The translations under genes and the position numbers were made by a program. From assembly GCA_016188355.1 (NCBI GenBank), contig JACPHY010000016.1, forward strand, positions 66,345-130,344: a stretch of DNA of 64,000 nucleotides. The letters are read 5' to 3'. The DNA comes from Candidatus Uhrbacteria bacterium (GTDB taxonomy: Bacteria > Patescibacteriota > Patescibacteriia > JACPHY01). This document shows positions 1,989-64,000 of the stretch, piece by piece (position 1 is the first letter of the stretch; the number at the start of each line of letters is the position of its first letter). Below the pieces are notes generated by a model. It had not been told where the DNA came from. It did no database searches and saw nothing but the letters and a program-made list of their open reading frames with translations.

Positions 1989-2060
1989 TCACGAATAGTG
2001 TTCGATATCAAAAGGATGACCCCACCCATGCATGTGCGGGTGGGGTCAGATAGTGTTCGG

Positions 2061-2678
2061 TTATGGTTCCCGCGCGCAATCGATGTGCGGCTGCTCGAAT
2101 TGTGGTCGATGCGCCTCCCAGACGCGCGCGTGGTCTTCGGCGAAGAGCTCCCAGATCACTTCGTCGTGGTAGCTGCCATCACGGAAGAACTGGAGTCGCC
2201 GCCGTCCCGCCTCATGGTATCCGCATTTCTCGTGGATGCGATTGCTCCCGACGTTCGGGGCAAAGGCGGAAGAGTTGATTTTCCGGAGATTGAGGCCGGT
2301 GAATGCGTACCGGAGTAGCAGCATGACCGCCTCGAATCCGTACCCATTCCGCCAATGTTCCTTGGCTCCGATGACCCAGCCGCTCGTTCCGGTGCGGTCA
2401 AGCCAGTCGATGTCATGGACGCCTACCGTCCCGATGTGCGTATCGTGCTCGCGGAGCACGAGCGCGAACACGTGGTGCGTTGTCGGACGTTCCTTTGCGA
2501 CATCCGCGACCCAGGATGCTTCTGCCGGGTACGGGATGTGCGTGTGTCGCAGGAGCCAGCGCGTGACTTCGGGATCGTTCATCCAGAGATAGCATCGTTC
2601 GGTATCGGTGCGCGGATCGAGTGGTCGGAGGTAGCATCGTGGTCCGGTTCGGAATTGCGGCTGGATGATGTTGGTCAT
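2061..2678 (-). CDS. GNAT family N-acetyltransferase (RimJ/RimL-like)
   Basis: Start chosen at MTNIIQPQF (rc ATG at 2678). Acetyl-CoA binding region …VIGAKEHWRNGYGFEAV… SD-like AGGAAC lies 7 nt upstream on the minus strand. The longer 458-aa ORF upstream is non-homologous GC-frame extension. Confidence 0.65.
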   Translation of the reverse strand: MTNIIQPQFRTGPRCYLRPLDPRTDTERCYLWMNDPEVTRWLLRHTHIPYPAEASWVADVAKERPTTHHVFALVLREHDTHIGTVGVHDIDWLDRTGTSGWVIGAKEHWRNGYGFEAVMLLLRYAFTGLNLRKINSSAFAPNVGSNRIHEKCGYHEAGRRRLQFFRDGSYHDEVIWELFAEDHARVWEAHRPQFEQPHIDCAREP

Positions 2679-2726
2679 GGACGTGTTCCTTTCGTCGCCG
2701 GGAATGGCATGCGAGGCAGAACGTAA

Positions 2727-2759
2727 AACGCCCCGGCGTTCCTGCCTCGCCGGGGCGTT
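2727..2759 (-). terminator. Perfect 12-bp GC-rich hairpin (AACGCCCCGGCG-N9-CGCCGGGGCGTT) with a TTTTACGTT tract on the minus-strand side
   Basis: Inverted repeat seen directly. On the minus strand it is followed by a U-tract. It lies between a small minus ORF (2783..2989) and the GNAT gene, so it may be a terminator or attenuator. Confidence 0.4.
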
Positions 2760-2987
2760 GGGACACGGACGGGACGCACGTTTTAGGAGCGGCCCACCAC
2801 CCGGGAGAAGGAGGAACGGGGAACCAAACCCGCTGCGGAATATGCAGCGAATTCGTTCTTCATGATGGTCAATACGGGTGGGTGGCACATATACAATGCG
2901 TGCAGCGTACCACTGGCTGGCAGGGTCGTCAAGGACACGGCACAATGAAAGTCGTGCGCGGTATGGTCTCCATGAAATGCAACATGC

Positions 2988-5072
2988 ATGTCGATTCACT
3001 ACGCCAGTGAGCTCAATCCAGAGCAATGGGAGGTGGTGCGCCACGGTGATGGGCGGTGTCTCGTATTGGCGGGAGCGGGAAGCGGCAAGACGCGCACGGT
3101 GGTGTACCGGGTGGCCTATTTGCTCGAGCAGGGGGTGCTGCCGCAGGAGATTTTGCTGCTTACCTTCACCAATAAGGCAGCGCGGGAGATGTTGGAGCGA
3201 GTGGAAACACTGCTCGGTCGTCACCCGGCGGGGCTTTGGGGTGGAACGTTCCATCACATTGCCAGCCGGGTGCTTCGTCGCTTTGCCGCGCAAGTGGGAT
3301 ATTCGTCCAATTTTACGATTTTGGATGAGGAAGATACGCACGATCTCCTGCGTGCCTCGGTCAAGGCGCTCGGTATTGATACCACCGCGCGTCGATTTCC
3401 TGCGCCAGCCGTTCTGCGTGCAGTCATGAGTTTTCACAAAAATGCGCAGCGTCCGTTACCTGAGGTCCTTGAGGAGCGAAATGCAAAATTTGCACCACTC
3501 GCTCCCGCGATCGAAAACGTGATGCGGCATTACGACGCGCGAAAGCGTGCATCGAATGCCATGGATTTTGATGATCTCCTCCTGCATTTTTTGCAGGTGC
3601 TGCAAGCACCCGGGATTGCGCATTCATTTGCGCAGCAGTTCCGGTATGTGTTGGTGGACGAGTTCCAGGACACGAATCGTCTTCAGGCGGAAATAGTGTC
3701 TTGCCTTGCAGCGGCGCACCACAATCTCTTGGTGGTGGGTGATGATGCGCAATCGATCTATTCGTTCCGTGCCGCCGAAGTGGCGCACATCCTTCAGTTT
3801 CCGCAGCAGGCGCCGGGGACGCGCATGTTCCGCATTGAGACGAATTACCGTTCTACGCCGGAGATTCTGGATGTCGCGAATGCGGTGATTGCGAATAATG
3901 TGGAGCAATTTCCGAAGACGCTGCGTCCGGTGCGGGCGCGTCGGGTGCGTCCACAGCTCGTGCAGGCAACGAGCATGGAGGAAGAGGCGCGATATATTGC
4001 AAAACGCATCCTGGAGCTCCGCGATCAGGGAGTGCCACTCTCGGAGATTGCGGTGCTTTTCCGGGCGACCCACCTCTCTGAATTCCTCGAATTGGAGCTC
4101 ATGAAGCGCGATATTCCTTATGATTATCGCGGCGGCGTACGTTTCTTCGAGCGTGCCCATGTGAAGGATGTGCTCGCATTCCTGCGCATCCTTTCGAATC
4201 CGGCGGATATTGCCGCCTGGCTGCGGGTGCTGCAGCTCCAGGAGGGTATTGGCGATGCAGGGGCGGGCGATATTGCCGAGCGCATGCGATCCATGGCGAC
4301 GGCACAATCGGGTGCAGCGTGGATCCCGTGGCAGGTATCGGGGACGACACTGGTGTTGCCTCCGCGTCTCGAGCGCGGGTGGGACGCATTCTGCCGGATG
4401 GCGGGGCCGCTCCAGGCGATGGGAGATCCGGCGATATTGATTCGGGCACTGGTGCGCGGCAGTTACCGAGATCATGTGGAGGCAACCTATCCGAATGCGT
4501 CCGAGCGATTCGAAGATATTGAGCAGCTTGCGGTGTTTGCGGAGCAATACACGGATGTGGCTGCGTTCCTTGCGGACATGTCCCTGCAGGAGCGTTTTCG
4601 CGCAGAGCGGGTTGGCCCAAATGCATCAGAGCGCGAACGGGTGGTGCTCTCCACGATCCATCAGGCGAAGGGGCTCGAATGGCACGCGGTATTTGTGATG
4701 GGGCTCAATGCGAATACCTTTCCGAATCGTCGCTCCGTGCTCGAGGAGGGGGGGATCGAGGAAGAGCGGCGACTGTTTTATGTTGCGGTGACGCGCGCGC
4801 GTGACGTGCTCGCGTTGACGTACGCGCTCGCCGGGGGGCGCGATGCTGGATTCTTGGCAGCTCCCTCCATGTTTCTCCAAGAAATCGATGCCGGACTCCT
4901 CGAGCCTATTGCGGTGGGACGTCCGTTGGGGACGACTGCGTGGCATCGGCCGTCGGCGTCGCGTGCGATTACTGATTCGGATGACCCGATCATTGTGTTG
5001 GATGCACAGGGAGAACGCATGCCCGCGCCGCAGCGGCCGAGGAGTTTTTTGCGGGATGTGGATGACCTCTAA
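2988..5072 (+). CDS. uvrD: ATP-dependent DNA helicase UvrD/PcrA family
   Basis: Walker A GAGSGKT. Family motifs FTNKAAREM, DEFQDTN, VGDDAQSIYSFR, VLSTIHQAKGLEWHAVFV, LFYVAVTRAR. Confidence 0.9.
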   Translation: MSIHYASELNPEQWEVVRHGDGRCLVLAGAGSGKTRTVVYRVAYLLEQGVLPQEILLLTFTNKAAREMLERVETLLGRHPAGLWGGTFHHIASRVLRRFAAQVGYSSNFTILDEEDTHDLLRASVKALGIDTTARRFPAPAVLRAVMSFHKNAQRPLPEVLEERNAKFAPLAPAIENVMRHYDARKRASNAMDFDDLLLHFLQVLQAPGIAHSFAQQFRYVLVDEFQDTNRLQAEIVSCLAAAHHNLLVVGDDAQSIYSFRAAEVAHILQFPQQAPGTRMFRIETNYRSTPEILDVANAVIANNVEQFPKTLRPVRARRVRPQLVQATSMEEEARYIAKRILELRDQGVPLSEIAVLFRATHLSEFLELELMKRDIPYDYRGGVRFFERAHVKDVLAFLRILSNPADIAAWLRVLQLQEGIGDAGAGDIAERMRSMATAQSGAAWIPWQVSGTTLVLPPRLERGWDAFCRMAGPLQAMGDPAILIRALVRGSYRDHVEATYPNASERFEDIEQLAVFAEQYTDVAAFLADMSLQERFRAERVGPNASERERVVLSTIHQAKGLEWHAVFVMGLNANTFPNRRSVLEEGGIEEERRLFYVAVTRARDVLALTYALAGGRDAGFLAAPSMFLQEIDAGLLEPIAVGRPLGTTAWHRPSASRAITDSDDPIIVLDAQGERMPAPQRPRSFLRDVDDL

Positions 5073-5078
5073 AAGAAT

Positions 5079-6599
5079 ATGACGACCACGATTCGTTCAG
5101 CGCTGGGCGCATTGGGGGCTGGGGTATTGGTGACGCTGTTCTGGCAGATGTTTGTGCCATCCCTGCTAGGGCATGCAGATATATTTAGCGTAGGATGGTC
5201 GTATTTCCTCCTTGGATGTCTCGGGGTGCTCTTGGGACTCGCCGCGTGGTTGCGGCGATCGATTTGGGGATGGCCGCTGCTGCTGGCAGCGCCCATTGTA
5301 TTGCTGGCGATTGATGTGGCGCTCTATGCGAATCCCATTGGTGATTTTTGGGCGGGCATGGGCGGCATCGGGTTGTTGTTGGTGTTTGGATATTGGCTGC
5401 TCACCGAGCGCGCGTCGTGGACGGAGATGGGTTGGGTGGTGGGAGGTGAGGTGATTGCCGCGGGGCTTCGTACGATCCGCGGAGTCGCTGCGCTTTTTCG
5501 CACACTCGTCCTCCCTGGGGGAGAGCGTCGATGGGCGCGTGAGGTGTTGGTGGGTGTGTTGCTCGCCATCCCATTCCTGCTTCTGTTTACGGCGCTTTTC
5601 GCGAGCGCAGACGCATCCATCGAGCGGGCCATTACTCGATTGATTGACGAGGCAACGCTGGAGACGCTCGGGTTGGTGATTCGACGTACGGTGGTGGCGC
5701 TCCTGGTCGCCGGTTATCTGGGATCGTTGCTCCTCCTTCCGCGTCCGTTTTCGACAGGATCGGGAAGGGTGCGGGAGATTCGTCCGACGGTGGTGACCAC
5801 TTTTTTCCTCCTGCTCGATATATTGTTCGTGGCATTCGTGGTGTTTGAGGTGGTACAGCTCGTACGCATGCGGGGTGCGTTGGAGCAGACGTTCGTGCTT
5901 TCGGCGGTCGCGCGTCGAGCGTTTGTGGAGCTCGTGGTGGCGAGTTTGTTCGCGTATGGATTGGGCGTGCTCTGGTATCGGGTATTCCCCGAAGCGGCGA
6001 ATGATCGTGCGGGACGCCGCGCACGGGGGATGTTGATCGGATTTTTTGGCGCAACGATTGGAGTTGCAGGCATTGCGATGGCGCAGGTGCTGCAGTATAC
6101 GGCGGCGTATGGGCTTACGCGGATGCGCGTGTATGCGTGCAGCATGATTATTGCGATCACGCTCGGCATGGTGGTCATGTTGCGTGCCGCGGCTCGTCGC
6201 GTACCGTTCCTCCGACTTGGTCGGTGGTTGAGCGTGGGAATGATCGCGGCATTTGTGGTGATGATGACATTGCCGGTCGATCGATTGGTTGGCGAATGGA
6301 ACGTGCGTCGACAAGCGAAGCATCCCACGGTCCCGTTAGATGTGGATTATTTCCGACAGGATCTCTCTCTGGATGCAATGCCGGCGCTCGCGCGATACGC
6401 GCGAACCGATGCGGTGGCGCGAGCGTGGATTCTCGGTACGCGCTGTCGTGTCGTCGAGGATTTAGATCCGCAGTATTGGGATAGGCAAGTAGATAACGAG
6501 CAGGTATTGTCCGCAGATTGGCGCGCTTGGAACTACTTCGCATACCGATGGTGTGCGCAGCTGCCGCAATTGAAAGAGGAATTGCGTGCGCTGCCTTGA
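5079..6599 (+). CDS. Polytopic integral membrane protein, function unknown
   Basis: At least 10 hydrophobic helices. Starts 7 nt after the uvrD stop. No recognisable catalytic motif. Confidence 0.6.
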   Translation: MTTTIRSALGALGAGVLVTLFWQMFVPSLLGHADIFSVGWSYFLLGCLGVLLGLAAWLRRSIWGWPLLLAAPIVLLAIDVALYANPIGDFWAGMGGIGLLLVFGYWLLTERASWTEMGWVVGGEVIAAGLRTIRGVAALFRTLVLPGGERRWAREVLVGVLLAIPFLLLFTALFASADASIERAITRLIDEATLETLGLVIRRTVVALLVAGYLGSLLLLPRPFSTGSGRVREIRPTVVTTFFLLLDILFVAFVVFEVVQLVRMRGALEQTFVLSAVARRAFVELVVASLFAYGLGVLWYRVFPEAANDRAGRRARGMLIGFFGATIGVAGIAMAQVLQYTAAYGLTRMRVYACSMIIAITLGMVVMLRAAARRVPFLRLGRWLSVGMIAAFVVMMTLPVDRLVGEWNVRRQAKHPTVPLDVDYFRQDLSLDAMPALARYARTDAVARAWILGTRCRVVEDLDPQYWDRQVDNEQVLSADWRAWNYFAYRWCAQLPQLKEELRALP

Positions 6600-7370: not shown

Positions 7371-8390
7371 GTGTACGATGGGTTCGATATGCCCGAACGG
7401 TCGACGGTCCCTCCCATCGAAAAGTTGCGTGCGATGTCAGCACGGCGCACTGCATTGTTGGCGTGGTATAGGGAATACGGCCGCCATGACCTCCCTTGGC
7501 GGCATACGCGCGATCCGTACGCGATCCTCATCTCGGAGGTGATGCTCCAGCAAACGCAGGTGGATCGGGTGCGATCGTATTGGGATGCTTGGATGCGGCG
7601 ATGGCCTACGGTACAGGCGCTCGCGCGGGCGCGGCGAGGGAGCGTGATTCGTGCGTGGGCGGGACTTGGATATAATCGTCGCGCGGTGTACCTGCATCAG
7701 TGTGCGCAGTATGTCACGACGCATCCGTGGTGGGGGGAATTGTTTTCCTATTCGCACGAATTAGCGAGTAGGAGTGTGGGGAATCGGGGATTCAGTGATG
7801 CGGAGGATGTAGAGATGGGGGCGTTGATTGCGGGTGTGCGCGGAGCGTGCGCAATGTGGCGTGGTGCCGTATTGCAGAAACGAATAACAAAAATTGCACG
7901 GATGTTGGAGGAACTTCCCGGCATTGGTCCGTATACGTCTCATGCGCTCCTCGCCTTTGCGTGGAATCTGCCCGCTCCCTGCGTGGACACGAACATTCGG
8001 CGCGTCCTCGCGCACATCATTTACCATCGGCCCGACATCATGGCCATGTCTGTTCCCGAGGTGATGCGGCTGGCTGCTCGGGTCATTCCTCCCGATTACG
8101 GTCGAGAATGGAATTATGCGCTCATGGATTACGGGGCACTCGTTTTTCAGGCGCGGCATGTACCCAATCGCACGAAGCGCGTGGTGGCCCCATTCAAAAA
8201 TTCCACGCGATACTGGCGGGGACGTATCGTGGCGGTGCTGCGGGAACATCGTCGGCCGCTGCCGCCCGCCGTGGTGCGTCAGCGTCTGCGCGTGCTCGGC
8301 GAGTGCACGGAAGATGTGGATGCGTTGCTGGTGGCATTGGTTCGCGATGGAGTGCTTGCACAGCATGACGCCGGCTTTTCGCTCGCATAG
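7371..8390 (+). CDS. mutY: A/G-specific adenine DNA glycosylase MutY
   Basis: HhH-GPD motifs (LPGIGPYTSHALLAFAW). Fe-S cysteine region. The C-terminal NUDIX-like MutY domain is present. N-terminus WYREYGRHDLPWR is typical. Confidence 0.85.
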   Translation: MYDGFDMPERSTVPPIEKLRAMSARRTALLAWYREYGRHDLPWRHTRDPYAILISEVMLQQTQVDRVRSYWDAWMRRWPTVQALARARRGSVIRAWAGLGYNRRAVYLHQCAQYVTTHPWWGELFSYSHELASRSVGNRGFSDAEDVEMGALIAGVRGACAMWRGAVLQKRITKIARMLEELPGIGPYTSHALLAFAWNLPAPCVDTNIRRVLAHIIYHRPDIMAMSVPEVMRLAARVIPPDYGREWNYALMDYGALVFQARHVPNRTKRVVAPFKNSTRYWRGRIVAVLREHRRPLPPAVVRQRLRVLGECTEDVDALLVALVRDGVLAQHDAGFSLA

Positions 8391-9353: not shown

Positions 9354-10501
9354 TGCGCTCGGGATGCGCGTGCAACCGCACGAGCGACGGTGGGAACCAC
9401 CTTTGGATCAAAGAGAGAGGGAATGATGTGTTCTGGGGTAGGACGCGACACGAGACGGGCCAGGGCGTGCGCTGCGGCGATTTGCATTGCCTCGGTGATT
9501 CGTGGAGCGCGTGCGGTAATGGCACCGCGGAAGATCCCTGGATACGCGAGTGCGTTGTTCACTTGATTGGGGAAATCGCTGCGTCCGGTGCCTACGACGC
9601 CTGCGCCTGCGGCACGGGCGAGGTCGGGCATGATTTCCGGGATCGGATTGGCCATGGCAAAGATGATGGGTTTCGGCGTCATGGTACGGACCATGTCTGG
9701 GGTGATGATGCCGGGCTTCGAGACGCCAATGCACACATCTGCCCCCACGAGCGCATCGGCGAGGGTGCCACATCGGTTTTGTTTGTTGGTGTGTGCGAGG
9801 AGTTCGCGTTTTGCGGGATAGAGGTCTGACCGTGCGTCACAGATGAGGCCGTGCGAGTCGATGAGGAGACAGTCGTGGACATGAGGCGCGAGGAGCTTCG
9901 TGATTGCGGTTCCTGCGGCTCCCGCGCCGATGATGACCACCGTGAGCGTGCGGAGTGATCGTTTTGTGGCGCGACACGCATTGAGGAGCGCAGCAAATAC
10001 CACCACTGCGGTACCGTGCTGGTCGTCGTGCATGACGGGGATACCGAGATCCTGCAGTTGCTCCTCAATGGCAAAGCAGCGCGGCGCAGCAATATCCTCA
10101 AGATTCACTGCGGCGAACGAGGGCGCGATGGCGCGTACCGTCGCAACGATTTCATCTACGTTTTGCGTGGCGAGGCAGATCGGGAATGCCCGGAGACCAG
10201 CGAAGGTCGAAAAGATGGCTGCCTTACCCTCCATGACCGGGAGTGCGGCGCGTGGACCAATATCGCCGAGGCCGAGAACCGCCGAACCGTCGGTGACGAT
10301 CGCCACGGTATCGCCAGCAATGGTGTAGCGCCGTACCTCCTCGGGATGTTCCGCGATACGCATGCATGCTTGTGCGACGCCCGGGGTGTAAGCGATGGAG
10401 AGATCGCGGCGCGATCGAAGCGGGAGTTTCGAGGTGATGCGCAATTTGCCGCCTCGATGTGCAGCGAGAATGGTGGCGAGTGCAGAGTGGGGGCGTGACA
10501 T
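9350..10501 (-). CDS. NAD(P)-dependent malic enzyme (short bacterial form)
   Basis: Malic enzyme motifs: LSIAYTPGVA, VTDGSAVLGLGDIGP, Rossmann GAGAAG, VFAMANPIPE. Confidence 0.85.
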   Translation of the reverse strand: MSRPHSALATILAAHRGGKLRITSKLPLRSRRDLSIAYTPGVAQACMRIAEHPEEVRRYTIAGDTVAIVTDGSAVLGLGDIGPRAALPVMEGKAAIFSTFAGLRAFPICLATQNVDEIVATVRAIAPSFAAVNLEDIAAPRCFAIEEQLQDLGIPVMHDDQHGTAVVVFAALLNACRATKRSLRTLTVVIIGAGAAGTAITKLLAPHVHDCLLIDSHGLICDARSDLYPAKRELLAHTNKQNRCGTLADALVGADVCIGVSKPGIITPDMVRTMTPKPIIFAMANPIPEIMPDLARAAGAGVVGTGRSDFPNQVNNALAYPGIFRGAITARAPRITEAMQIAAAHALARLVSRPTPEHIIPSLFDPKVVPTVARAVARASRAH

Positions 10502-24685: not shown

Positions 24686-26662
24686 ATGACCGCGCATCGT
24701 ATTCGTTGGTATCACTTCGGCGGCCTCGTCCTCATGATCGCTTTTGTGTTGGCGGCGATCGTGTTCGTGCGCGCTACATCGGACATGGTGCAGGCACGGC
24801 GCGATGTTGCGCTCGTGCGCCAGACGCTGTCCCGCGCGGGTACCGAATGGCGGAATGAGGGAATGCGCGCGCTGCCGCGTATTGCCGAGGAACTTCGTGA
24901 TGCCGAAGATGCGATACAGCGCACGCACGCACTCCTCACGACGTATCGGCCCTTGGGGGTAGTGCCGCTCCTCGGGGAGGATGTGGTATTTGCGACACAG
25001 ATGACCACATCCGCCGCAACCATGATCACTGCGGCGCGACAAATGGTGGCAGTCGCACAGGACGGCGCCCTCCTTTTCGACCAATTTCGTGATCGATCAC
25101 CGCGTGATTTGACGCTCCGCGAGCGAACCTCCATTGCCTTTGCGCTGACCGGAGGCATCACGCGTATGCGTGTTGGGGTGACGGCGATTGCGCAGGAATT
25201 AGAGGCACTTTCGCGATTGCGGTGTCCGCGCTTCGCTGCTCGCGCGGTGACGTGTACTGCGTCGGGCATGTTGGATGTGGAGGGAGTATTCGGCTCCACG
25301 CTTCAAGAATTCCGCGGTATCGAACAGCGGGTCGCTGCTGCGTTGCGGAGTGCGGATGCGCTCGCATCGCTCGTCGGCGCTGCAGGCCCCACCGATGTGC
25401 TGGTGCTGCTGCAGAATAACACCGAACTTCGACCTTCCGGTGGTTTCTTGGGAACATACGGATTGATGACCGTCCATCATGGCGAAATCGTGCGCATGAT
25501 GACGGACGATGTGTATACGCTCGATCGTGCAGCAGCAGATCGCCTCCACATTGCACCGCCAGAACCATTTCGTCGGTACGGGATCGCGCCGTGGTGGTTC
25601 CTCCGTGATGCGAATTGGTCGCCCGACTTTTTCGTGTCCGCAACGCAGGTGCTGGATTTCTATCGTCGTGAGGGCGGTCCGGGGTCGCCGACGATCGTCA
25701 TTGGCATCACGCCCACCTTTGCGTCCGCGCTCCTGCGTATCGTGGGTCCCGTGACCATCCAGGGGGTACGATTCACCCCCGAGCACATTGCCGATGAACT
25801 CGATTTTCAGGTCGAAGTCGCATATGCGCGCAAGGGGATTCCCACGGCGCAGCGAAAAGCAATTATTGCGCCTCTCACCCAAACCGTCGTGGATCGATTG
25901 AGCGGGATTCCATTTCGATCCTGGGGTCCCGTTCTGGAGAGTGTGCGGACGGCGGTGCAGGAACGACATTTGGTGATTGCAGCGGTGCATCCGCAAATTC
26001 AGGAAGCACTGGATGCGGTGGACGTGACCGGCCGCGTGCGTCCGCTTCCGGTCGGCACGGATGGCCTTCTCGTCGTCGACGCAAATTTGGGGAGCCTGAA
26101 GACGGATCCGTTCGTGGAGCGTTCGTACCGATATTCCATCACACCGGCGGGGAGCGGGTATCGCGGTCGGCTGGATTTGCGCTACCGCAACACCGGGACG
26201 TTCACCTGGAAGACGAGTCGATATCGTACCTATGCGCGAATGTATTTGCCGCAGGGGACGCATATTCGAGAGGTGCGGGGGGCAATGCAGGGGGATCGGT
26301 CCGGCGCACCGGGCACTGTGGACCAATCTGAGGAATTCGACCGAATGGTCGTGGGTGCATTTCTCAGTGTGGAGCCGGGAACGGCACGAACGCTCACGAT
26401 CGAATTTGATCTCGCGCCAGCAATTGTGCAGCAGATTCGGTCTGGCCGATATACCCTTGTGGGGCAAAAGCAGCTCGGTACGATCGCGACGCCGTTGACG
26501 CTCGACCTCCGCTTCGGTACACCTGTGAGAGCGGCGAGTCCACCGGAAGTTCGTTCCGCCTGGGGAGATGATCGGTATGTACTGACGACCGATCTTCGCA
26601 TCGATCGTACGTGGAACGTACGGTTGGACTCGGCTACACTGCCATCGGCAGCATTGCCCTAA
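24686..26662 (+). CDS. DUF4012-domain protein (N-terminal TM anchor)
   Basis: LLQNNTELRPSGGFLGTYGLM is the hallmark DUF4012 motif. Starts 2 nt after the GT2 stop. Confidence 0.7.
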   Translation: MTAHRIRWYHFGGLVLMIAFVLAAIVFVRATSDMVQARRDVALVRQTLSRAGTEWRNEGMRALPRIAEELRDAEDAIQRTHALLTTYRPLGVVPLLGEDVVFATQMTTSAATMITAARQMVAVAQDGALLFDQFRDRSPRDLTLRERTSIAFALTGGITRMRVGVTAIAQELEALSRLRCPRFAARAVTCTASGMLDVEGVFGSTLQEFRGIEQRVAAALRSADALASLVGAAGPTDVLVLLQNNTELRPSGGFLGTYGLMTVHHGEIVRMMTDDVYTLDRAAADRLHIAPPEPFRRYGIAPWWFLRDANWSPDFFVSATQVLDFYRREGGPGSPTIVIGITPTFASALLRIVGPVTIQGVRFTPEHIADELDFQVEVAYARKGIPTAQRKAIIAPLTQTVVDRLSGIPFRSWGPVLESVRTAVQERHLVIAAVHPQIQEALDAVDVTGRVRPLPVGTDGLLVVDANLGSLKTDPFVERSYRYSITPAGSGYRGRLDLRYRNTGTFTWKTSRYRTYARMYLPQGTHIREVRGAMQGDRSGAPGTVDQSEEFDRMVVGAFLSVEPGTARTLTIEFDLAPAIVQQIRSGRYTLVGQKQLGTIATPLTLDLRFGTPVRAASPPEVRSAWGDDRYVLTTDLRIDRTWNVRLDSATLPSAALP

Positions 26663-31069: not shown

Positions 31070-31179
31070 GGGGACGATCGGCTTCGACGGTGGATGGAGG
31101 TGCTCGAATGGAGCGCTCCGGCATCGCTCGCCGCGGTGCGTATCTGCCGGACGCGGGTTCGACTCCCGCCGTCTCCATC
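31070..31179 (+). ncRNA. ssrA: tmRNA (ssrA)-like tRNA-like domain; unusually compact (about 110 nt), no tag ORF detectable
   Basis: 5' GGGGACGATCGGCTTCGACGG matches the tmRNA 5' acceptor + D-loop-analogue consensus. 3' GGACGCGGGTTCGACTCCCGCCGTCTCCA matches T-arm + acceptor. The 7-bp acceptor pairing has a G3-U70 wobble and A73 discriminator (alanine identity). There is no stop codon in any frame across the 65-nt middle segment. Confidence 0.5.
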
Positions 31180-31416
31180 GGATCGTGGGGGAACCTTCCG
31201 GTTTCCCTCCCGTGCCCCCTTCCCTCCAACCAGGTCACTTGCTCCCTCCGTATGTGGGGTCGGGCAAAGCCCTTCTTCCCCCACATACTCCGGTCGCTGC
31301 GCTCGGGATCGGATGGGGTCCATGATGGGCATCTTGAGGAATCCTCTTGTTTGGATTCCTCTTTTTTATTCCATGCACACGGGTTGTTTTGGTATTTGGT
31401 ACGATACAGGAAACGT

Positions 31417-35561: not shown

Positions 35562-36065
35562 ATGCGCGCATCGCTTCGTTCAATTTGGTTTCGGAATGCT
35601 ATTTTTGGAGTAGAGGACAGTCTCATTTCCACACTTGGGCTCCTTGCGGGTCTTGCGGTAGCGGACGCGGAACGGGCAACCATTATCCTCACGGGAGTGG
35701 TGCTCATTGCGGTGGAGGCGTTCTCTATGGGCGTAGGCAGTCTGCTCTCGGAGCATTCCGTGGAGGAGCTCGAATCACGTCGTACGCTTCCGATGCGAAA
35801 GGCGGCAAGTGGGGGAGCGGTGATGTTCGTGTCCTACGTGGCTGCGGGATTTATTCCGCTTGGGCCATATGCGATATTTCCGGTGTCGCACGCGCTTTGG
35901 TATTCAGTGATCGGTACGCTGGGCGCGCTCTTCGTGCTCGGCGTTTTGGTTGCTTGGGAATCGCGTACCCGCATGATTCGGCACGGGTGCGAGATGCTGC
36001 TCTTTGGTGGTGCGGCGATCGCGGTAGGCATGATTGTGGGAAGGCTCGCACAGATCGCGATGTGA
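35562..36065 (+). CDS. VIT1/CCC1-family (DUF125) putative iron/manganese transporter
   Basis: …FGVEDSLISTLGLLAGLAVA…ILTGVVLIAVEAFSMGVGSLLSE… plus the C-terminal TM helices typical of VIT family. Confidence 0.65.
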   Translation: MRASLRSIWFRNAIFGVEDSLISTLGLLAGLAVADAERATIILTGVVLIAVEAFSMGVGSLLSEHSVEELESRRTLPMRKAASGGAVMFVSYVAAGFIPLGPYAIFPVSHALWYSVIGTLGALFVLGVLVAWESRTRMIRHGCEMLLFGGAAIAVGMIVGRLAQIAM

Positions 36066-36090
36066 TCGGTCATGGTGGTGCCGTGGTATA

Positions 36091-37857
36091 ATGAGATCTG
36101 TGCGTATCACCAACTGGGACATTTTTCACGTGCTGCTGCGGCATGCGCTGCGGCATCGATGGGGCGCATTGGCGACGTTAGCCGGAGCGAGTATTGCGGC
36201 GGTACTCGAGACAACGGTTCCTTGGTACTACCGTCAGTTTATTGACGTGCTCGGCGCGACCATACCTGGGATTTCGGCATCCGCAGATGCATTTCGCATT
36301 CTCGGGATTATTATTTTTCTCAATTTCGGTGCTTGGTGTGGACGTCGCTTGCAGGGCTTTGCATCGAGTGAGTTTCAGCCACGAGTCATGGCGGATTTAG
36401 AGCGAGAGAGCTTCTCGTATGTGCTCGGGCATTCGTACAAATTTTTTTCCGATGCATTCGCCGGTTCGCTGGTACGCAAGGTACATCGCATCAGCCGTGC
36501 ATTTGAAGTTATCGTGGACGAGGTGCAGTACCAATTTCTTCCGCTCGCAATCATACTGATCGGCGCAACCATCGGTCTCGGATTGCGGCATCCGACGTTC
36601 GCGATAGTTTTCGTGCTTTGGGCGGCCATGGTACTTGTTCTGAACTATGTTGCTTCTCGTTGGAAATTACGAATTGATGTCCAACGCGCAAGTGCTGACT
36701 CGGCGGTTACCGCAGCGCTTTCCGACGCGCTCACCAATGCAATCACCATCAAACTATTCACCGGAGCGTCATACGAAACAGATCGATTCGGCGCTGCGAA
36801 AGATACATGGCGCACGCTCCAGTCTTGGGCGTGGCGTCGGGGAGAAATCATCAGCTCCGTACAGGCAGCGCTCATGATGGGCATTGAGTTCGGCTTCTTG
36901 GCATGGGGGTTGTCGCGATGGTCACAAGGGCTGCTTTCCGTGGGGGACATTGTGCTCATGCAGGCATACCTTGGAATTATTTTTGGTAAGTTGTGGGACA
37001 TCGGACGTTCCTTTCGGCACATGGTAGAGGCGCTGGCCGATGCGCGCGAAATGGTAGAAATTCTTGAGCTGCCGCATGATGTTCGTGATCAGCGCAGCGC
37101 AAAGCCGCTTCGCGTCAAGCGGGGCGGGATCGTATTTCGTGACGTTTCGTTTTCATTTCAAAAGAAGCGCGTGGTGTTGGATCATTTCGTACTCTCCATT
37201 GCACCGCAAGAAAAAGTGGCCCTGGTGGGTCCATCAGGAGCGGGGAAGTCGACGATTACGAAGCTCCTGTTCCGGCTTCATGATATTTCGAGCGGATCAA
37301 TTCTCATTGATGGTCAGGACATCGCGAAGGTCACGCAGGAGAGTTTGCGCGATGCGATCGCGCTGGTGCCGCAGGAGCCCATCCTGTTCCATCGGACGCT
37401 CATGGAGAATATTCGATACGGGCGCCGAGATGCAACGGATGACGAGGTTATTACTGCAGCACGACAGGCGCACTGTGATGCATTTATTCGTGCGTGCCCG
37501 CAGGGGTACGAGACGTATGTGGGCGAGCGTGGCGTGAAGTTATCGGGTGGCGAGCGTCAACGCATTGCCATTGCGCGTGCCATCCTCCGCGACGCGCCAA
37601 TCCTCGTCCTTGATGAGGCGACCTCCAGTCTGGATTCCGAGTCCGAGCAGCTCATTCAAGATGCGCTGCGGGTGCTCATGGCACGAAAGACGGTCATGGT
37701 GATTGCGCATCGACTCTCGACCATCATGCTCATGGATCGGATCGTGGTCGTGGAGGCGGGCCGGGTCACTGCGACCGGCACCCACGAAGAACTGCTGGCC
37801 GGCCGAGGTACCTATCGGCGACTCTGGGACATACAGGCGGGCGGATTCATTGCATGA
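36091..37857 (+). CDS. ABC transporter, fused permease/ATPase (MsbA-like exporter)
   Basis: Six-TM domain, then Walker A GPSGAGKST, signature LSGGERQRIAIARA, Walker B ILVLDEATSSLD, H-loop IAHRLST. Confidence 0.85.
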   Translation: MRSVRITNWDIFHVLLRHALRHRWGALATLAGASIAAVLETTVPWYYRQFIDVLGATIPGISASADAFRILGIIIFLNFGAWCGRRLQGFASSEFQPRVMADLERESFSYVLGHSYKFFSDAFAGSLVRKVHRISRAFEVIVDEVQYQFLPLAIILIGATIGLGLRHPTFAIVFVLWAAMVLVLNYVASRWKLRIDVQRASADSAVTAALSDALTNAITIKLFTGASYETDRFGAAKDTWRTLQSWAWRRGEIISSVQAALMMGIEFGFLAWGLSRWSQGLLSVGDIVLMQAYLGIIFGKLWDIGRSFRHMVEALADAREMVEILELPHDVRDQRSAKPLRVKRGGIVFRDVSFSFQKKRVVLDHFVLSIAPQEKVALVGPSGAGKSTITKLLFRLHDISSGSILIDGQDIAKVTQESLRDAIALVPQEPILFHRTLMENIRYGRRDATDDEVITAARQAHCDAFIRACPQGYETYVGERGVKLSGGERQRIAIARAILRDAPILVLDEATSSLDSESEQLIQDALRVLMARKTVMVIAHRLSTIMLMDRIVVVEAGRVTATGTHEELLAGRGTYRRLWDIQAGGFIA

Positions 37858-38105
37858 GCGCCATGCTCGAAAAGCACCCACCAGCGCATTGCTGATGGGT
37901 GCCGTGGATCCGCTACGCGCGAGTGACCATACGACGGCGCTTCGCTGTTTTTGGCATGGGGACTTTTGGTTCGTGCTCGCGCCTCCGGGGCGTCAGTGGT
38001 GAGGAAGATCTCCCGGAGAGCGTTGGCGAACTCCTCGATTGCAGGTAATGCCTTGTGCTCGAGTATCTCGTCGTGTGGCTGCAGCCGTTCGGCGAGCTCC
38101 TCCAT
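37812..38105 (-). CDS. Small hypothetical protein (97 aa) divergent from arsR-family gene
   Basis: rc ATG at 38105 preceded by AAGGA 9 nt upstream. N-terminal 50 aa helical-looking. Overlaps the ABC 3' end by 45 nt. Confidence 0.3.
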   Translation of the reverse strand: MEELAERLQPHDEILEHKALPAIEEFANALREIFLTTDAPEARARTKSPHAKNSEAPSYGHSRVADPRHPSAMRWWVLFEHGAHAMNPPACMSQSRR

Positions 38106-38180
38106 CGCTTTTCCTTAGTGGTGTGGACCGAATTCAAGTAGTGGCTTCTTTTTTGTTTTTGGTTGGGGGTGCCCAATCTC

Positions 38181-38196
38181 TTATTCGTACGAATAA
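38181..38196. promoter_or_regulatory. Perfect 16-bp palindrome TTATTCGTACGAATAA (putative operator) upstream of the ArsR-family gene
   Basis: About 22 nt upstream of the ArsR ATG. TATACT -10-like hexamer follows at about 38205. Near-identical copy at 58873..58886. Confidence 0.55.
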
Positions 38197-38217
38197 ACGA
38201 ATGGAAGTATACTATGC

Positions 38218-38538
38218 ATGAGGTGGGCGGAGCTTTTGTTTTTGATGGCACATGATATGAATGATGCACGACTGCGGGATGCGACGCGTACGCTGAAGGC
38301 ATTAGCGAATGATCGGCGGTTATGGATTGTGCGGGAGCTTGCGCGGGAGAAGGAGCTTACGGTGGGGGACATCGCAAAGCGAATTAAGCTATCCTACAAA
38401 AGCACTTCGAAGCACCTGCAGAAGCTCTCCGAAGCAGAGTTGCTGCATCGCGAGCAGCGATCGCTGGAGGTGTACTGCTCGCTCGACCGGCGGAATGCGC
38501 TGCTGCAGGCGCTCCTCCCGCACCTCCCCTCGATGTAG
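38218..38538 (+). CDS. ArsR/SmtB-family transcriptional regulator
   Basis: …LKALANDRRLWIVRELAREKELTVGDIAKRIKLSYKSTSKHLQKLSEAELL… is a winged HTH of the ArsR family. Confidence 0.75.
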   Translation: MRWAELLFLMAHDMNDARLRDATRTLKALANDRRLWIVRELAREKELTVGDIAKRIKLSYKSTSKHLQKLSEAELLHREQRSLEVYCSLDRRNALLQALLPHLPSM

Positions 38539-38700: not shown

Positions 38701-39444
38701 ATGTCTATGCAAAAATATCGGGCGACCATGCTGGTGTGCTTCACGCCCCTCGTGACGCTCGCCACATTTGCGATTGAGTATGCGCTTGCGGCGTTCGTTT
38801 TCCTTCGGTATGGGCATCGTCCATTTGGGCGTCTCGTGAGCGTGGTACTGCTCCTCCTCGGTACCTTCCAGTTGGCGGAGTATCGGATCTGTCTCGGGGA
38901 CCGTACGGAGTTGTGGACGGTGATTGGATGGATGGCAATTACCCTGTTGCCGTCCGCGAGTGCGCATATCGCTGCTTGGGTGACGCGACGGACGACACTG
39001 CTCGTTCCGATGCTCCATGCGGTTGCCGCGATATTTGCGGGCATTATTCTCTGGCGACCCGCGGTGGTCCAATTGGGAACCTGTACGGGTAAATTTGTGA
39101 CCTTTTCCTATCACAGCGCGTTCGGCGCGGCGTATTCCCTCTACTATGGCGCAGGTCTGGCAATCGCGCTCGCGTGGCTGATTGCGGCGCTCGTTACCAA
39201 GTCCGGTCATCGATCGCTCGTTGGGTGGACGCTGGTGGGGTACTGTTCCTTCCTGGTCCCCGTCGGCGTGCTCACGGTATTTTCCTTGATTACTCGGATG
39301 AATGTGCCGTCCATTTTGTGTGGATTTGCCGTACTGCTCGCGGTGATCCTTACCGTTCGCGTGGTGCCGCTGGAAGCGCAGCTGCGTCAGACGGTTCGCG
39401 CACATCGGCGTACGCGTGCCCCGCATGCATTCCGTACTTCGTGA
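38701..39444 (+). CDS. Integral membrane protein, hypothetical
   Basis: Seven hydrophobic helices. Co-directional downstream of the ArsR-family gene. Confidence 0.5.
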   Translation: MSMQKYRATMLVCFTPLVTLATFAIEYALAAFVFLRYGHRPFGRLVSVVLLLLGTFQLAEYRICLGDRTELWTVIGWMAITLLPSASAHIAAWVTRRTTLLVPMLHAVAAIFAGIILWRPAVVQLGTCTGKFVTFSYHSAFGAAYSLYYGAGLAIALAWLIAALVTKSGHRSLVGWTLVGYCSFLVPVGVLTVFSLITRMNVPSILCGFAVLLAVILTVRVVPLEAQLRQTVRAHRRTRAPHAFRTS

Positions 39445-40138
39445 TCTCCGCGCGGAACTCCGCGCGGCTGCATGTCCGGCAAGGGCGGCCATTGCGCAGC
39501 GTTTTTTTCAAACGGGCGTTGGCGGGTATGCGGAGGGTGATCAATTTTTTGGTATTCGGGTTCCCGTGCTCCGGCAGCTCGTTCGTCGATATCGCAACCT
39601 CCCCATCGCTGCGGTGGAGGAGTTGTTCTGTTCGCCAATGCATGAGGAGCGGTTTCTTGCGATCAATATCTTAATCGATCAGTACCGTCGCGGAGATGAC
39701 CGTGCCCGAATGCGGATCGTGGACTGCTATCTCCGCAATATCGCGTACGTCAACAATTGGGATCTCGTCGATGGTTCTGCGCATCATCTCCTGGGAGCAT
39801 TGTTGGTGACACGGTCGCGTCGAATATTGTATCGGTTGGCGCGCTCCAGAAATTTTTGGAAACGAAGAATCGCCATTGTGGCAACCATGGCGTTCATCAC
39901 GCGTGGCGAATATGCGGATACGTTTGCGATCGCGCATATCCTGCTTCGCGATCCGCATGATCTCATCCAGAAAGCGGTCGGATGGATGTTGCGAGAGGTG
40001 GGGAAGCGTGCACGTCCTGCGGAGGAGGAATTTTTGCGTGCGCACTACCGGGAGATGCCGCGTACCATGCTTCGGTACGCGATCGAGCGTTTTCCTGAGG
40101 CGCGTCGTCAGGCGTATCTCCGGGGCACGGTCACGTAG
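39425..40138 (+). CDS. DNA alkylation repair enzyme (AlkD/AlkC-like HEAT-repeat glycosylase family)
   Basis: …AQRFFQTGVGGYAEGDQFFGIRVPVLRQLVRRY…NNWDLVDGSAHHLLG… matches the DNA_alkylation (AlkD-like) family pattern. Confidence 0.65.
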   Translation: MHSVLRDLRAELRAAACPARAAIAQRFFQTGVGGYAEGDQFFGIRVPVLRQLVRRYRNLPIAAVEELFCSPMHEERFLAINILIDQYRRGDDRARMRIVDCYLRNIAYVNNWDLVDGSAHHLLGALLVTRSRRILYRLARSRNFWKRRIAIVATMAFITRGEYADTFAIAHILLRDPHDLIQKAVGWMLREVGKRARPAEEEFLRAHYREMPRTMLRYAIERFPEARRQAYLRGTVT

Positions 40139-58657: not shown

Positions 58658-58872
58658 TGGCAGATGTGGAATGGAGAGGGACGTGTAGCGCTCCTGATCA
58701 TTCGGGAGCAGGAACGTTGTGGCACTGTTTTGTATGGGGTGGATAGCTAGCTCGGTCTAGTTTATTGCGAGGGAAGCGACAAGAGAGATTGCTGGTTAGC
58801 GCTATTGGTTTTGGGAGGTTTTTGTTTCTGAAGAGATTCTTCGTGCGTTGTTTTCCGAGGGGCCATGTCTCC

Positions 58873-58886
58873 TATTCGTACGAATA
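58873..58886. promoter_or_regulatory. Second copy of palindrome (C)TATTCGTACGAATA(AG) about 100 nt upstream of metG
   Basis: 15 contiguous identical bases shared with the arsR-family upstream site at 38181..38196 (TATTCGTACGAATAA), with similar T-rich upstream context. Confidence 0.5.
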
Positions 58887-58987
58887 AGCGATTATGCGTG
58901 CGGTGCATCGGCCCGGGTGATGGCGATGCGAGCGATGTGATCGTTGCGATAGGAATCATGAGGTGATACGTTTGAGGGTCGAACGAC

Positions 58988-60538
58988 GTGAAATCTATGG
59001 CAAAGTTCTACTGCACCACGCCCATCTATTACGTGAACGACCGGCCGCATATTGGACATGCGTATTCCACGTTTGCCGCGGATGCGCTCGTCACGTGGCA
59101 TCGACTTTCTGGGGAGTCGGTGTTTTTTCTCACGGGAACGGACGAGAATGCACAAAAGAACTCCGAGGCGGCGGCGAAGCGGCTCGGGGTAACTCCTGCG
59201 GAGACCTCCCGTGCGCAAGTACAGGCGTACGTCGATGAGATGTCGGCGGTGTGGCAGCGTACGTGGGATACGTTGGGGATCCGCTATGACCGTTTTATTC
59301 GTACCACCGAGCCTGCGCACCTCCGTGGCGTGGAGCAGTTCATCGCCGCGGTGCAGGAACGGGGAGACATCTACAAGGGGACATATCGCGGATGGTACTG
59401 CGTGGGATGTGAGGCATTCGTCCCGGAGGGTGATCTGGTGGAGGGAAAGTGTGCTACCCATTTGCGCGTCCCGGAGCGGATTGAAGAGGAGAACTATTTT
59501 TTTCGTCTCGCCAAATACCGCGATGCGCTGCTCGCGCATATCGAACAACATCCGGAGTTCATTCAACCGGAATCGCGACGGAATGAAATCGTCGCGTACA
59601 TTCGTGACCACCTTGCGGATATCAGTATTTCGCGCCCGATGCGGAATTGGGGCATTCCGTTCCCCGGCGATCCCGCGCAGGCGGTATACGTGTGGTTTGA
59701 TGCGTTGGGGAACTATCTGACGGGCGTGGGGTATGGTACGGATGCAGCGCAGTTTGCGCAGTGGTGGCCCGCAGATCTCCATCTCATTGGAAAGGACATC
59801 ATCAAATTCCATTGCGCGCTCTGGCCGGCCATGCTCCTGAGTGCAGGCATTCCGCTGCCGCGGCGGGTGTTTGCACATGGATTCTTTACGATCGATGGGC
59901 AAAAGATGTCGAAGTCACTCGGGAATGTAGTGGATCCGGTCGTATCAGCGCAACGGTACGGATTGGATGCGCTGCGATTCTTTCTGTTCCGTGAAATTTC
60001 GTTCGGCGGGGATGGCGATTTTTCCGAAGCGCGTCTCGCGGAGCGTTACGCGGCCGAACTCCAGCACGGCATTGGCAACTTCGCCGCACGAACGATTGCC
60101 ATGGTGCGGAAATATACCGACGGGCGAGTACCGGCAATCGGGGATCGTAATCTCGTGGGGGATGTGTGGGCGCGATATGCGGATGCCTTCGATCGTGCGC
60201 AGCTCCACGAGGCACTTGCGATTGCAACGGAGCTTGTTCGCGTAGGAGATCAGCTCATCGAGCAGGAGCGTCCATGGGAGCTCGCGAAGCGTGGCGAAAC
60301 CGATCGGCTCCATCGTGTGCTCGGGGAGCTGGTGGAGCTGCTCCGGCATCTCGCGCTCCTCCATGCGCCGTTCACGCCTGCGACCACAGATCGCATTTTG
60401 ACGGCATTGGGTCAGGAGGATTGGCGTTCGCATGCGTGGACCGAGTTGCAGCAGTGGGGTCGCCGCACCGAAGGAGCGGTCCTCCGTGAACTGCCGCATC
60501 TCTTCCCGCCACTCGAAGGTGTGCCGGTGCGGGGATAG
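58988..60538 (+). CDS. metG: Methionyl-tRNA synthetase
   Basis: HIGH (…DRPHIGHAYSTFAAD…), Zn knuckle (…CVGCEAFVPE…GKCATHLRVPE…), KMSKS (…GQKMSKSLGN…). Confidence 0.9.
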   Translation: MKSMAKFYCTTPIYYVNDRPHIGHAYSTFAADALVTWHRLSGESVFFLTGTDENAQKNSEAAAKRLGVTPAETSRAQVQAYVDEMSAVWQRTWDTLGIRYDRFIRTTEPAHLRGVEQFIAAVQERGDIYKGTYRGWYCVGCEAFVPEGDLVEGKCATHLRVPERIEEENYFFRLAKYRDALLAHIEQHPEFIQPESRRNEIVAYIRDHLADISISRPMRNWGIPFPGDPAQAVYVWFDALGNYLTGVGYGTDAAQFAQWWPADLHLIGKDIIKFHCALWPAMLLSAGIPLPRRVFAHGFFTIDGQKMSKSLGNVVDPVVSAQRYGLDALRFFLFREISFGGDGDFSEARLAERYAAELQHGIGNFAARTIAMVRKYTDGRVPAIGDRNLVGDVWARYADAFDRAQLHEALAIATELVRVGDQLIEQERPWELAKRGETDRLHRVLGELVELLRHLALLHAPFTPATTDRILTALGQEDWRSHAWTELQQWGRRTEGAVLRELPHLFPPLEGVPVRG

Positions 60539-63671: not shown

Positions 63672-63721
63672 CTCAAAGGAGTTTCGATTCCTTTACGTCT
63701 GCGATACGATGGAAGAGCCAT

Positions 63722-64000
63722 ATGTCGCTTCTCGATATCGCACTACTCACCATTTTGGGAGGATTCGTGCTCTATGGATTCCTCCTTGGATTCATTCACG
63801 CGCTCGGCGTGGTTGTAGGTATTGTCATCGGCGCATATGTCGCGGGGCACCTGTTTAATCCCATCGCGTTGTATATTGCCACCTCCCTCGGATGGAGCTT
63901 GAACGTGCTGCGCGTGATCGTATTTTTGCTCCTCTTCGGCATCGTGAATCGTCTCGTCGGATTTGGTTTTTCGTTGGTGCACAAGTTGTTTCAGATGCTT
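63722..64000 (+). CDS. cvpA: CvpA-family membrane protein (3' partial, runs off window)
   Basis: MSLLDIALLTILGGFVLYGFLLGFIHALGVVVGIVIGAYVAGHLF… No stop before the window end. Confidence 0.6.
   Translation, partial: MSLLDIALLTILGGFVLYGFLLGFIHALGVVVGIVIGAYVAGHLFNPIALYIATSLGWSLNVLRVIVFLLLFGIVNRLVGFGFSLVHKLFQML

Follow-up and report, generated by a model that had tools for sequence, protein, structure and literature searches.

We analyzed a 64-kb stretch of DNA (64,000 nucleotides, hereafter the window) from contig JACPHY010000016.1 of a Candidatus Uhrbacteria bacterium, a member of the Patescibacteria, or candidate phyla radiation (CPR). The window has a G+C content of about 59% and a GC skew that is positive throughout. 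It contains a gene for an ArsR/SmtB-family regulator (38218–38538, plus strand), the metG gene for a 513-aa methionyl-tRNA synthetase (MetRS; 58997–60538, plus strand; Pfam tRNA-synt_1g, E=8e-92) and a mutY-like adenine glycosylase gene (7371–8390, plus strand), and a copy of the palindromic element studied here was found at each of them. The perfect palindromic 14-mer TATTCGTACGAATA occurs exactly twice in the window, at 38182–38195 and 58873–58886, and at the first of these sites the palindrome extends to 16 bp (TTATTCGTACGAATAA, 38181–38196). A first-pass annotation, made from the sequence alone, had described a repeated palindrome in front of the arsR-family gene and metG. The repeat proved real, as both copies were read in the sequence: TCTTATTCGTACGAATAAACGA lies at 38179–38200, exactly as annotated, and TCCTATTCGTACGAATAAGCGA lies at 58870–58891, 1 nt away from the interval 58871–58892 given for it. 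The annotated distances (about 22 nt to the ArsR gene and about 100 nt to metG) also held, since we measured 21 nt from the first site to the ATG at 38218, and from the second site 100 nt if metG starts with the GTG at 58988 and 109 nt if it starts with the ATG at 58997, the annotated MetRS start. The T-rich stretches reported before both copies were likewise present, with 43–45% T at positions −60 to −17 compared with 22% window-wide.

By chance, an exact extra copy of the 14-mer would be expected only about 2e-4 times per copy in 64 kb. When up to three mismatches were allowed, the window gave six matches against a mean of 1.1 in shuffled sequence, and none of 100 shuffles reached six. A 32-bp scoring matrix, built from the elements of relatives, was applied to the window and to 20 shuffles. 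Three strong sites were found, with 39.7 bits (centre 38189), 32.9 bits (58880) and 32.5 bits (7756), and the fourth-ranking site reached 6.6 bits, close to the shuffle maximum of 6.2 bits. Candidate sites at 26335 (ATTCGACCGAAT) and 51101 were dropped, as their full-matrix scores were at or below the shuffle maximum. Beyond ±16 nt the flanks of the three copies were dissimilar in five of six comparisons (p=0.17–0.71); the sixth, between the right flanks of the arsR and mutY copies, gave z=2.9 (p=0.02), for a short GC-rich stretch whose register is off by about 60 nt. Because these flanks are unrelated, only an element of about 30 bp is common to the copies, not a duplicated segment, and a local duplication or a miniature inverted-repeat transposable element (MITE) was ruled out. 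The small number of copies in the window might be taken to suggest chance coincidence or a functionless local duplication, but with no shuffle reaching the observed count, three sites above 30 bits, unrelated flanks, and an element conserved across hundreds of species, the probability of such an explanation is negligible.

The three sites, which are listed without a strand, were designated operators 1 to 3. Operator 1 (CCAATCTCTTATTCGTACGAATAAACGAATGG, 38173–38204) is the full 32-bp element in front of the regulator gene and is also present in a 97%-identical strain. Its right outer half-site reads ACGAAT (38197–38202); a T-rich tract on its 5ʹ side (38146–38162, plus strand; 45% T at −60 to −17) may serve as an UP-like element, and a candidate −10 hexamer of the arsR-family promoter, TATACT (38208–38213, plus strand), can be read 4 nt past it. 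Operator 2 (CATGTCTCCTATTCGTACGAATAAGCGATTAT, 58864–58895) lies within the 340-nt spacer between greA and metG, with its core at 58872–58887 and an outer half-site, GCGATT, at 58888–58893. It is overlapped by a candidate −10 hexamer, GATTAT (58890–58895, plus strand), which matches TATAAT at four of six positions, including A2 and T6, and from which the metG leader would be about 95 nt long. Operator 3 (TTGTTTTCCTATTCGCACGAATTAGCGAGTAG, 7740–7771) lies in frame within the mutY-like open reading frame (ORF).

The occurrence of the element was then followed across the Patescibacteria. When one genome per species was scanned, 360 proved to encode a relative of the regulator, and 80 loci were fetched, with 20 kb read per genome; sites were called with the family matrix at a threshold of 15 bits, and the strict core was counted over 1.14 Mb. 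The element lies within 220 nt upstream of the regulator gene in 75 of the 80 orthologue loci, just downstream of this gene in 69, and on both sides of it in 66, and nearly all 80 loci carry TTCG-NN-CGAA just upstream of the gene. At the same threshold no site was called in 441 kb of shuffled sequence, and sites away from the regulator gene occurred once per 26.8 kb in the orthologue loci. The strict core ATTCG-N2-CGAAT occurred 172 times, compared with about once expected by chance: 72 occurrences were upstream of the regulator gene, about 60 were immediately after it and 40 were elsewhere. Copies mostly lie just upstream of an ORF and in a preferred orientation, the orientation of the site matching that of the downstream gene in 95 cases and opposing it in 17.

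A pattern scan of metagenome contigs found at least 120 loci with the element. Among the matches listed, 149 stringent sites were present, 32 of them beside the regulator gene, 87 away from it and 30 left unassigned; as most of them do not flank the regulator, each genome must hold many sites. The genes downstream of the elements, in the orthologue loci and the metagenome matches listed, are varied, and include those for ABC-F ATPases, a PIF1-like helicase, TatD, methylpurine glycosylase (MPG), a GIY-YIG nuclease, tryptophanyl-tRNA synthetase (TrpRS), YchF, ClpP, an M24 peptidase, PGK, topoisomerase I, TGT, MscL, RbfA and a CsaA-like tRNA-binding protein, together with many small ORFs of unknown function. 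The first-pass annotation had held that a motif found at many random positions would be a repeat rather than an operator. The high frequency was indeed observed, but the conclusion does not follow: the copies usually lie upstream of ORFs, are oriented, have no shared flanks, and co-vary with the regulator protein (see below), which fits a multi-target operator better than a repeat family.

Several loci showed local peculiarities. Locus L124 (JGI Ga0193751_1000051) has ten copies of the operator in 4 kb (1990–5830), three of them in tandem (1990, 2061 and 2141) and most of the others just 5ʹ of a small ORF; the regulator gene of this locus (3744–4010) lies amid the ten copies, and the region looks like an island of regulon genes. 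In L073 (about 9950–10000), a G+C-rich palindrome of 25 nt interrupts the core in front of the regulator gene (CTCTAATTCGCCTGCCTGTGCGTCGCACGCAGACAGGCGCGAATTAGAG). A DnaA-box-like motif, TTTCCACA, lies at a fixed spacing, 19–24 nt upstream of the core, in L009, L012, L059, L062, L070, L072 and others, and was counted in 8 of 71 regulator-upstream regions versus 1 of 100 other sites.

The consensus element is about 32 bp long and is built of four GAAT half-sites, TATTCTCTAATTCG-NN-CGAATAAGnGAATAG, or, with its centre written out, TcTATTCTCTAATTCG-CG-CGAATAAGnGAATAG. The two inner half-sites form the ATTCG-NN-CGAAT core about a 2-nt centre, and the two outer half-sites lie 8 nt further out. The outer half-sites are conserved on both sides, giving dyad symmetry, and the right one is more conserved than the left. 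The right outer half-site often reads TAGAAT and is preceded by TGG, which makes a good extended −10 element. In 12 of 18 sites of the TAGAAT type, the ATG of the regulator gene follows 6–9 nt after the hexamer; therefore, a leaderless mRNA is implied. In relatives, no more than 2 nt separate the core palindrome from the −10-like hexamer. The promoter of the regulator gene carries a long imperfect inverted repeat that abuts or includes the −10 hexamer, the arrangement looked for in an ArsR/SmtB operator. Proteins of this family bind 12-2-12 inverted repeats, and two-dimer binding has been reported for some members; by analogy, the resemblance of the half-site geometry to such repeats suggests that one dimer, or two, would bind.

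The same features could be expected of a core promoter architecture that only RNA polymerase and its sigma factor read, with the ArsR gene as one user among others: the right half-site is frequently TAGAAT, often after TGG and with an ATG 6–9 nt on, the element stands in a consistent orientation before many unrelated genes, and T-rich tracts lie 5ʹ of the two intergenic copies in the window. However, a sigma factor needs no dyad symmetry, and the left outer half-site, which would have no promoter role, is conserved as well. In addition, with only 2 nt between it and the −10 box, the core does not have the spacing of a −35 element, so that a canonical sigma-70 promoter as the sole explanation fails on the −35/−10 spacing of 16–18 nt, and the presence of the element on both sides of the regulator gene in most orthologue loci is not what a promoter would predict.

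We also examined the regulator itself. It is a 93-aa protein with a complete ArsR/SmtB winged-helix fold, and its gene scored 34.2 bits with Pfam HTH_5 (cut-off 22) and 64.2 bits with NF033788 (cut-off 55). Alternative start codons lie at 38245 and 38257, and the start at 38257 is favoured because the orthologues are about 88 aa long. These homologues are highly conserved and occur in Paceibacterota and related groups. The AlphaFold model (pLDDT 93) has the order a1-a2-a3-aR-b1-b2-a5, with helices at residues 3–16, 19–30, 36–42, 47–59 and 81–89 and strands at 63–68 and 71–76. Foldseek gave TM-scores of 0.75–0.85 with HlyU, NolR, CadC, PagR, SqrR, CzrA and SmtB, and the best match in a profile search of the PDB was HlyU (E=1.4e-13, residues 4–86). 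The window protein was far below the cut-offs of the equivalog models for BigR, CmtR and TsoR, and also below those for PagR (37 bits, cut-off 170) and the SdpR-family model NF033789 (42–49 bits, cut-off 100).

The annotation had called the regulator metal- or redox-sensing, a claim that the family alignment does not support. The family consensus reads ...LKALANxRRLAIL...VGDIA..I.LSFKATSKHL...EQRSL..., and among the invariant columns of 21 family members there is no Cys and only one His, H53, which lies in the recognition helix. The position of the metal-binding ELCVCDL motif reads VGDIA, and the single Cys of the window protein is not conserved in the family. No conserved set of metal or thiol ligands (an alpha3N Cys motif, an alpha5 Asp/His/Glu site or a reactive Cys pair) was found among the 21 members. 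The regulator is therefore a member of the ArsR/SmtB fold without a recognisable sensory site, nearer to NolR, HlyU and PagR than to the metal sensors.

The link between this protein and the element was clearest where the protein varies. Three orthologues, from two genomes, carry the recognition helix RIGLSLKSTSKHI in place of RIKLS[FY]K.TSKHL, the helix of the L004/L005-type protein being IGLSLKSTSKHI, and two of the three also have EQKS for EQRS in the wing. In GTDB these variants rank with the nearest relatives of the window protein. AGTCG-N2-CGACT is the core of each of the six sites that surround them, with outer half-sites of the GACT type, occasionally GAGT, and none of the six is of the GAAT type. 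No genuine GACT-type site was found in the other 77 loci. The switching of all four half-sites together with the adjacent protein is the strongest argument that the regulator reads the element, although it represents one evolutionary event. An architecture read by sigma factor alone, in which the half-sites have no reason to turn to GACT exactly where the helix of the adjacent regulator changes, is thus quite unlikely.

The element might instead be the operator of another DNA-binding protein, the ArsR-family gene being merely a conserved member of its regulon. The regulator is assigned by adjacency, it shows no obvious sensory site, and the regulon spans many kinds of gene, all of which would suit this explanation. 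Yet the regulator gene is bracketed by the element in 66 of 80 loci though its neighbour genes differ, and 32 of the 149 stringent sites in the metagenome matches listed still flank it. Recognition-helix substitutions also track the half-site change, and a 12-2-12-like repeat is a known target of ArsR/SmtB proteins. We therefore regard control by a different protein as improbable.

The second intergenic copy, at metG, is a good instance of the element, at 32.9 bits and with an outer half-site. In contrast to the regulator gene, metG is not a conserved target: the four closest sampled MetRS relatives (66–71% identity) have no element upstream of metG, and no metG was found within the 80 orthologue loci or among the downstream genes in the metagenome matches listed. 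In three of the four relatives metG abuts an ABC-transporter or rsmI gene, and in the fourth there is a 270-nt spacer. As metG of the relatives has no site, the 340-nt spacer of the window and its operator are lineage-specific, and the operator-bearing spacer plausibly supplies a promoter that was needed after a rearrangement. The small regulon linking the regulator to metG, which had been proposed in the annotation, thus finds no support, with no site in the relatives and an element that precedes dozens of unrelated genes; its alternative, a conserved promoter-associated element, is compatible with the findings.

A leader RNA of metG, such as a T-box, was considered and rejected. The leader at 58896–59000 folds no better than shuffled sequence (z=+0.73), and no Rfam family was matched. 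The sole Rfam match in the window is a tmRNA at 31070–31180 (70 bits), which is only 111 nt long yet spans model positions 1–374 and overlaps an 85-nt tRNA-Ala (CGC) call by ARAGORN.

Gene order around metG differs among the genomes. In L084 and L087 the ABC-transporter gene directly abuts metG and cvpA then follows, and the order in L086 differs again, nth-CBS-rsmI-metG-cvpA-ABC. In the window, the ABC-transporter gene (36034–37857) and metG are 21.1 kb apart, an interval that opens with operator 1 and arsR and closes with greA and operator 2, and a further 3.2 kb or so lie between metG and cvpA (63700–64000). The window MetRS, which is 100% identical to an NCBI Candidatus Uhrbacteria protein, has no C-terminal tRNA-binding domain. 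This domain is the one represented by the CsaA/Trbp111-like stand-alone tRNA-binding protein, whose gene lies downstream of three copies of the element (L016 at 1150, L035 at 9016 and L038 at 487). Two further copies (cluster represented by L196_5216) precede TrpRS.

The third copy lies inside a coding sequence. The mutY model TIGR01084 matches the mutY-like protein in two stretches (residues 27–118 and from about 179 onward), and operator 3 is at the 5ʹ edge of the insertion of about 55 aa between them (roughly residues 119–178; about 7725–7905), relative to MutY models. The insertion, located between the LGYNRR and LPGIG motifs, is hypervariable in length and sequence among related Uhrbacteria. 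Operator 3 encodes FSYSHELAS, and FSYS[H/Y]EL is the only conserved stretch of the insertion in these relatives. A site lies at the same place in L208 (MutY 66% identical; 32.7 bits) and, as a perfect 32-bp palindrome of 56.7 bits, in L210 (MutY 58% identical). The surrounding DNA is not conserved in either, which makes the site an island of DNA conservation. At the level of sequence comparison, this points to selection on a DNA element inside the coding region. An internal leaderless start was rejected, as the GTG located 6 nt past operator 3 in the window is not conserved in L208 or L210. With no conserved start codon downstream of it, this copy is likelier to be a roadblock or a binding site than an internal promoter, and its conservation also weighs against a purely sigma-read element.

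An inverted repeat of this length could also act through structure or mobility, as an RNA or DNA hairpin, a terminator, a processing site, a cruciform, or a repeat of the repetitive extragenic palindrome (REP) or MITE kind, or a recombination repeat at rearrangement junctions. The abundance of copies, up to ten in 4 kb in L124, would be in line with this, as would the copy at the edge of the mutY insertion and the intergenic copies at both ends of the 21 kb that separate the ABC gene from metG relative to L084 and L087. So would the sites of L035 (1884, 4555, 9016 and 9930) and L038 (1230 and 2372), each of which is a perfect 34-bp palindrome. The outer arms of these palindromes differ between sites of one genome with mirrored, compensating changes, for example CTACACCCC...GGGGTGTAG versus TTACATCCC...GGGATGTAA, a pattern that could stem from template switching that 'perfects' quasi-palindromes, or from a structural role specific to the lineage.

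Over 338 distinct sites, however, arm complementarity was barely above the prediction from column composition, and at two positions beside the core it was significantly below expectation (z=−6.7 and −4.9), which a stem could not tolerate. There is no T-run after the element in the family consensus, and no Rfam family was matched at any of the three window sites. L035 and L038 apart, a hairpin, whether terminator or structured RNA, was thus rejected. The only terminator-like match at the sites (38161–38178) was within chance expectation. The copies have unrelated flanks and usually stand, oriented, just 5ʹ of ORFs, so that they show neither the extended shared sequence nor the placement regardless of gene starts of REP- or MITE-like repeats. 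No transposase or integrase was noticed among the nearby ORFs examined, and 2.9 million viral contigs gave no match to the element. Taken together, these results make it very unlikely that the element works through structure or mobility. A link to phages or defence systems was likewise dropped, given the absence of viral-contig matches and PADLOC matches only to the generic helix-turn-helix of Csa3/CasR.

Taking the evidence together, we consider it probable, on sequence grounds, that the palindrome is an autoregulatory, multi-target operator of the sensor-less ArsR-family protein encoded at 38218–38538, and that this protein probably acts as a repressor. A position typical of an autoregulatory operator had already been pointed out in the annotation, and this was confirmed, as 75 of 80 orthologues have the same arrangement and the half-sites change with the recognition helix. 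In the proposed mechanism, a regulator dimer, or two dimers, would bind the element with its four half-sites, where it adjoins or includes the −10 box. The bound regulator would occlude RNA polymerase at its own promoter, and negative autoregulation would therefore result. The same module of promoter and operator stands before many unrelated genes of Patescibacteria, so that a variable set of promoters could be repressed. The copy at metG would probably both supply and control the metG promoter, none being needed in relatives where metG is fused to the preceding operon, and the copy in mutY would most likely be a roadblock or binding site and not a promoter. The analysis demonstrates the element with its conservation and position, its co-variation with the protein, and the fold of the protein, and from these we infer the physical binding, the sign of regulation (repression), the oligomeric state and the −10 boxes of the window.

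Several observations weigh against this interpretation. The assignment of protein to site derives from adjacency and from co-variation that arose once, in one clade. With targets as diverse as these, and metG not conserved among them, a coherent physiological role is missing. As the regulator has no conserved ligand residues, there is no evident signal and no evident route to relief of repression. The consensus sigma-70 scan found no full −35/−10 pair around either intergenic copy, and the −10 assignments of the window are weak. Finally, the perfect palindromes of L035 and L038, with their site-specific arms, are not predicted by simple half-site recognition.

Further genes at the arsR locus would share this control. 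Probable operon mates of the regulator gene lie downstream on the plus strand, namely two genes that may be co-transcribed with it, one for a 247-aa membrane protein (38701–39444) and one for a DNA-alkylation-repair (AlkD-like) protein (39416–40138; Pfam DNA_alkylation, E=1.9e-63). The order of regulator, membrane protein and AlkD genes, together with the element, is the same in the 97%-identical strain (contig L001). A 97-aa ORF on the minus strand (37812–38105) diverges from the arsR promoter region, its start being 76 nt from operator 1. It has no Pfam, NCBIfam or PADLOC match, and, if real, it could also be under the control of operator 1.

The pair is best compared with the autorepressors SmtB, CzrA, CadC and ArsR. 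It shares their fold (TM-scores of 0.75–0.85 to CzrA, SmtB and CadC, with family models above their cut-offs) and, like them, has a long inverted repeat, centred on 2 nt, next to or overlapping the regulator's promoter; the two-dimer binding of some members would fit the four half-sites. Unlike these proteins, the regulator has no conserved alpha3N or alpha5 ligands or Cys pairs and no adjacent metal-efflux or detoxification gene, and the element is found on either side of the regulator gene as well as at numerous other, unrelated promoters. NolR of Sinorhizobium has the ArsR fold and lacks a metal site; through a short dyad operator it regulates its own gene and many unrelated targets. It is a structural neighbour (PDB 4omy, 4omz and 4on0; TM about 0.8), but it belongs to an unrelated lineage, has only about 28–30% sequence identity, and its operator is (A/T)TTAG-N9-A(T/A), compared with ATTCG-N2-CGAAT and outer half-sites here.

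HlyU of Vibrio (PDB 3jth, 4k2e and 4ooi) and PagR of Bacillus anthracis (2zkz) gave the best profile and fold matches (TM 0.83), and both are small non-metal ArsR-family dimers that act on promoter palindromes. HlyU differs in being an anti-silencer or activator with redox-sensing Cys residues, which are not conserved here. As a functional analogy only, LexA-type autorepressors are also autoregulated, bind a palindrome overlapping the promoter and have a regulon that drifts between lineages, and several targets here concern DNA repair (mutY, AlkD in the operon, and MPG, TatD, GIY-YIG and PIF1 in relatives). LexA has an unrelated fold, and the regulator has no self-cleavage domain and targets that are not mainly DNA-repair genes.

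An autoregulated ArsR-family protein on a 12-2-12-type operator is well known, and NolR is a precedent for a sensor-less member with many targets. Full-text literature searches found no description of the motif or the regulator in CPR. What appears to be new is the CPR-wide subfamily, the operator rule, a half-site that also serves as a −10 element for leaderless starts, the presence of the element on both sides of the regulator gene, and the conserved in-frame copy in mutY. More tentatively, it is possible that the 88–93-aa sensor-less protein and the 32-bp element form a master module across the Patescibacteria. Such a module would provide portable, leaderless or short-leader promoters for dozens of unrelated genes per genome, bracket its own gene, possibly with DNA looping, and lie in frame in mutY and maybe at rearrangement junctions, and its protein would act as the main global transcription regulator of these reduced genomes.

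CPR bacteria are mostly uncultured, with genomes of roughly 1 Mb and apparently very few regulators, and to our knowledge almost nothing is known about transcription regulation in this group. The regulator–operator pair occurs in at least 360 species-level genomes and has a clear sequence rule, with a natural specificity variant, GAAT versus GACT. It permits prediction of the regulon of each genome, and tests in vitro need no cultures, only short DNA duplexes and the protein, which has about 90 residues. For the window, a single control input is predicted for arsR (and with it the membrane-protein and AlkD genes), metG and mutY. In metagenome assemblies of CPR, the element could mark promoter positions, leaderless starts and operon boundaries.

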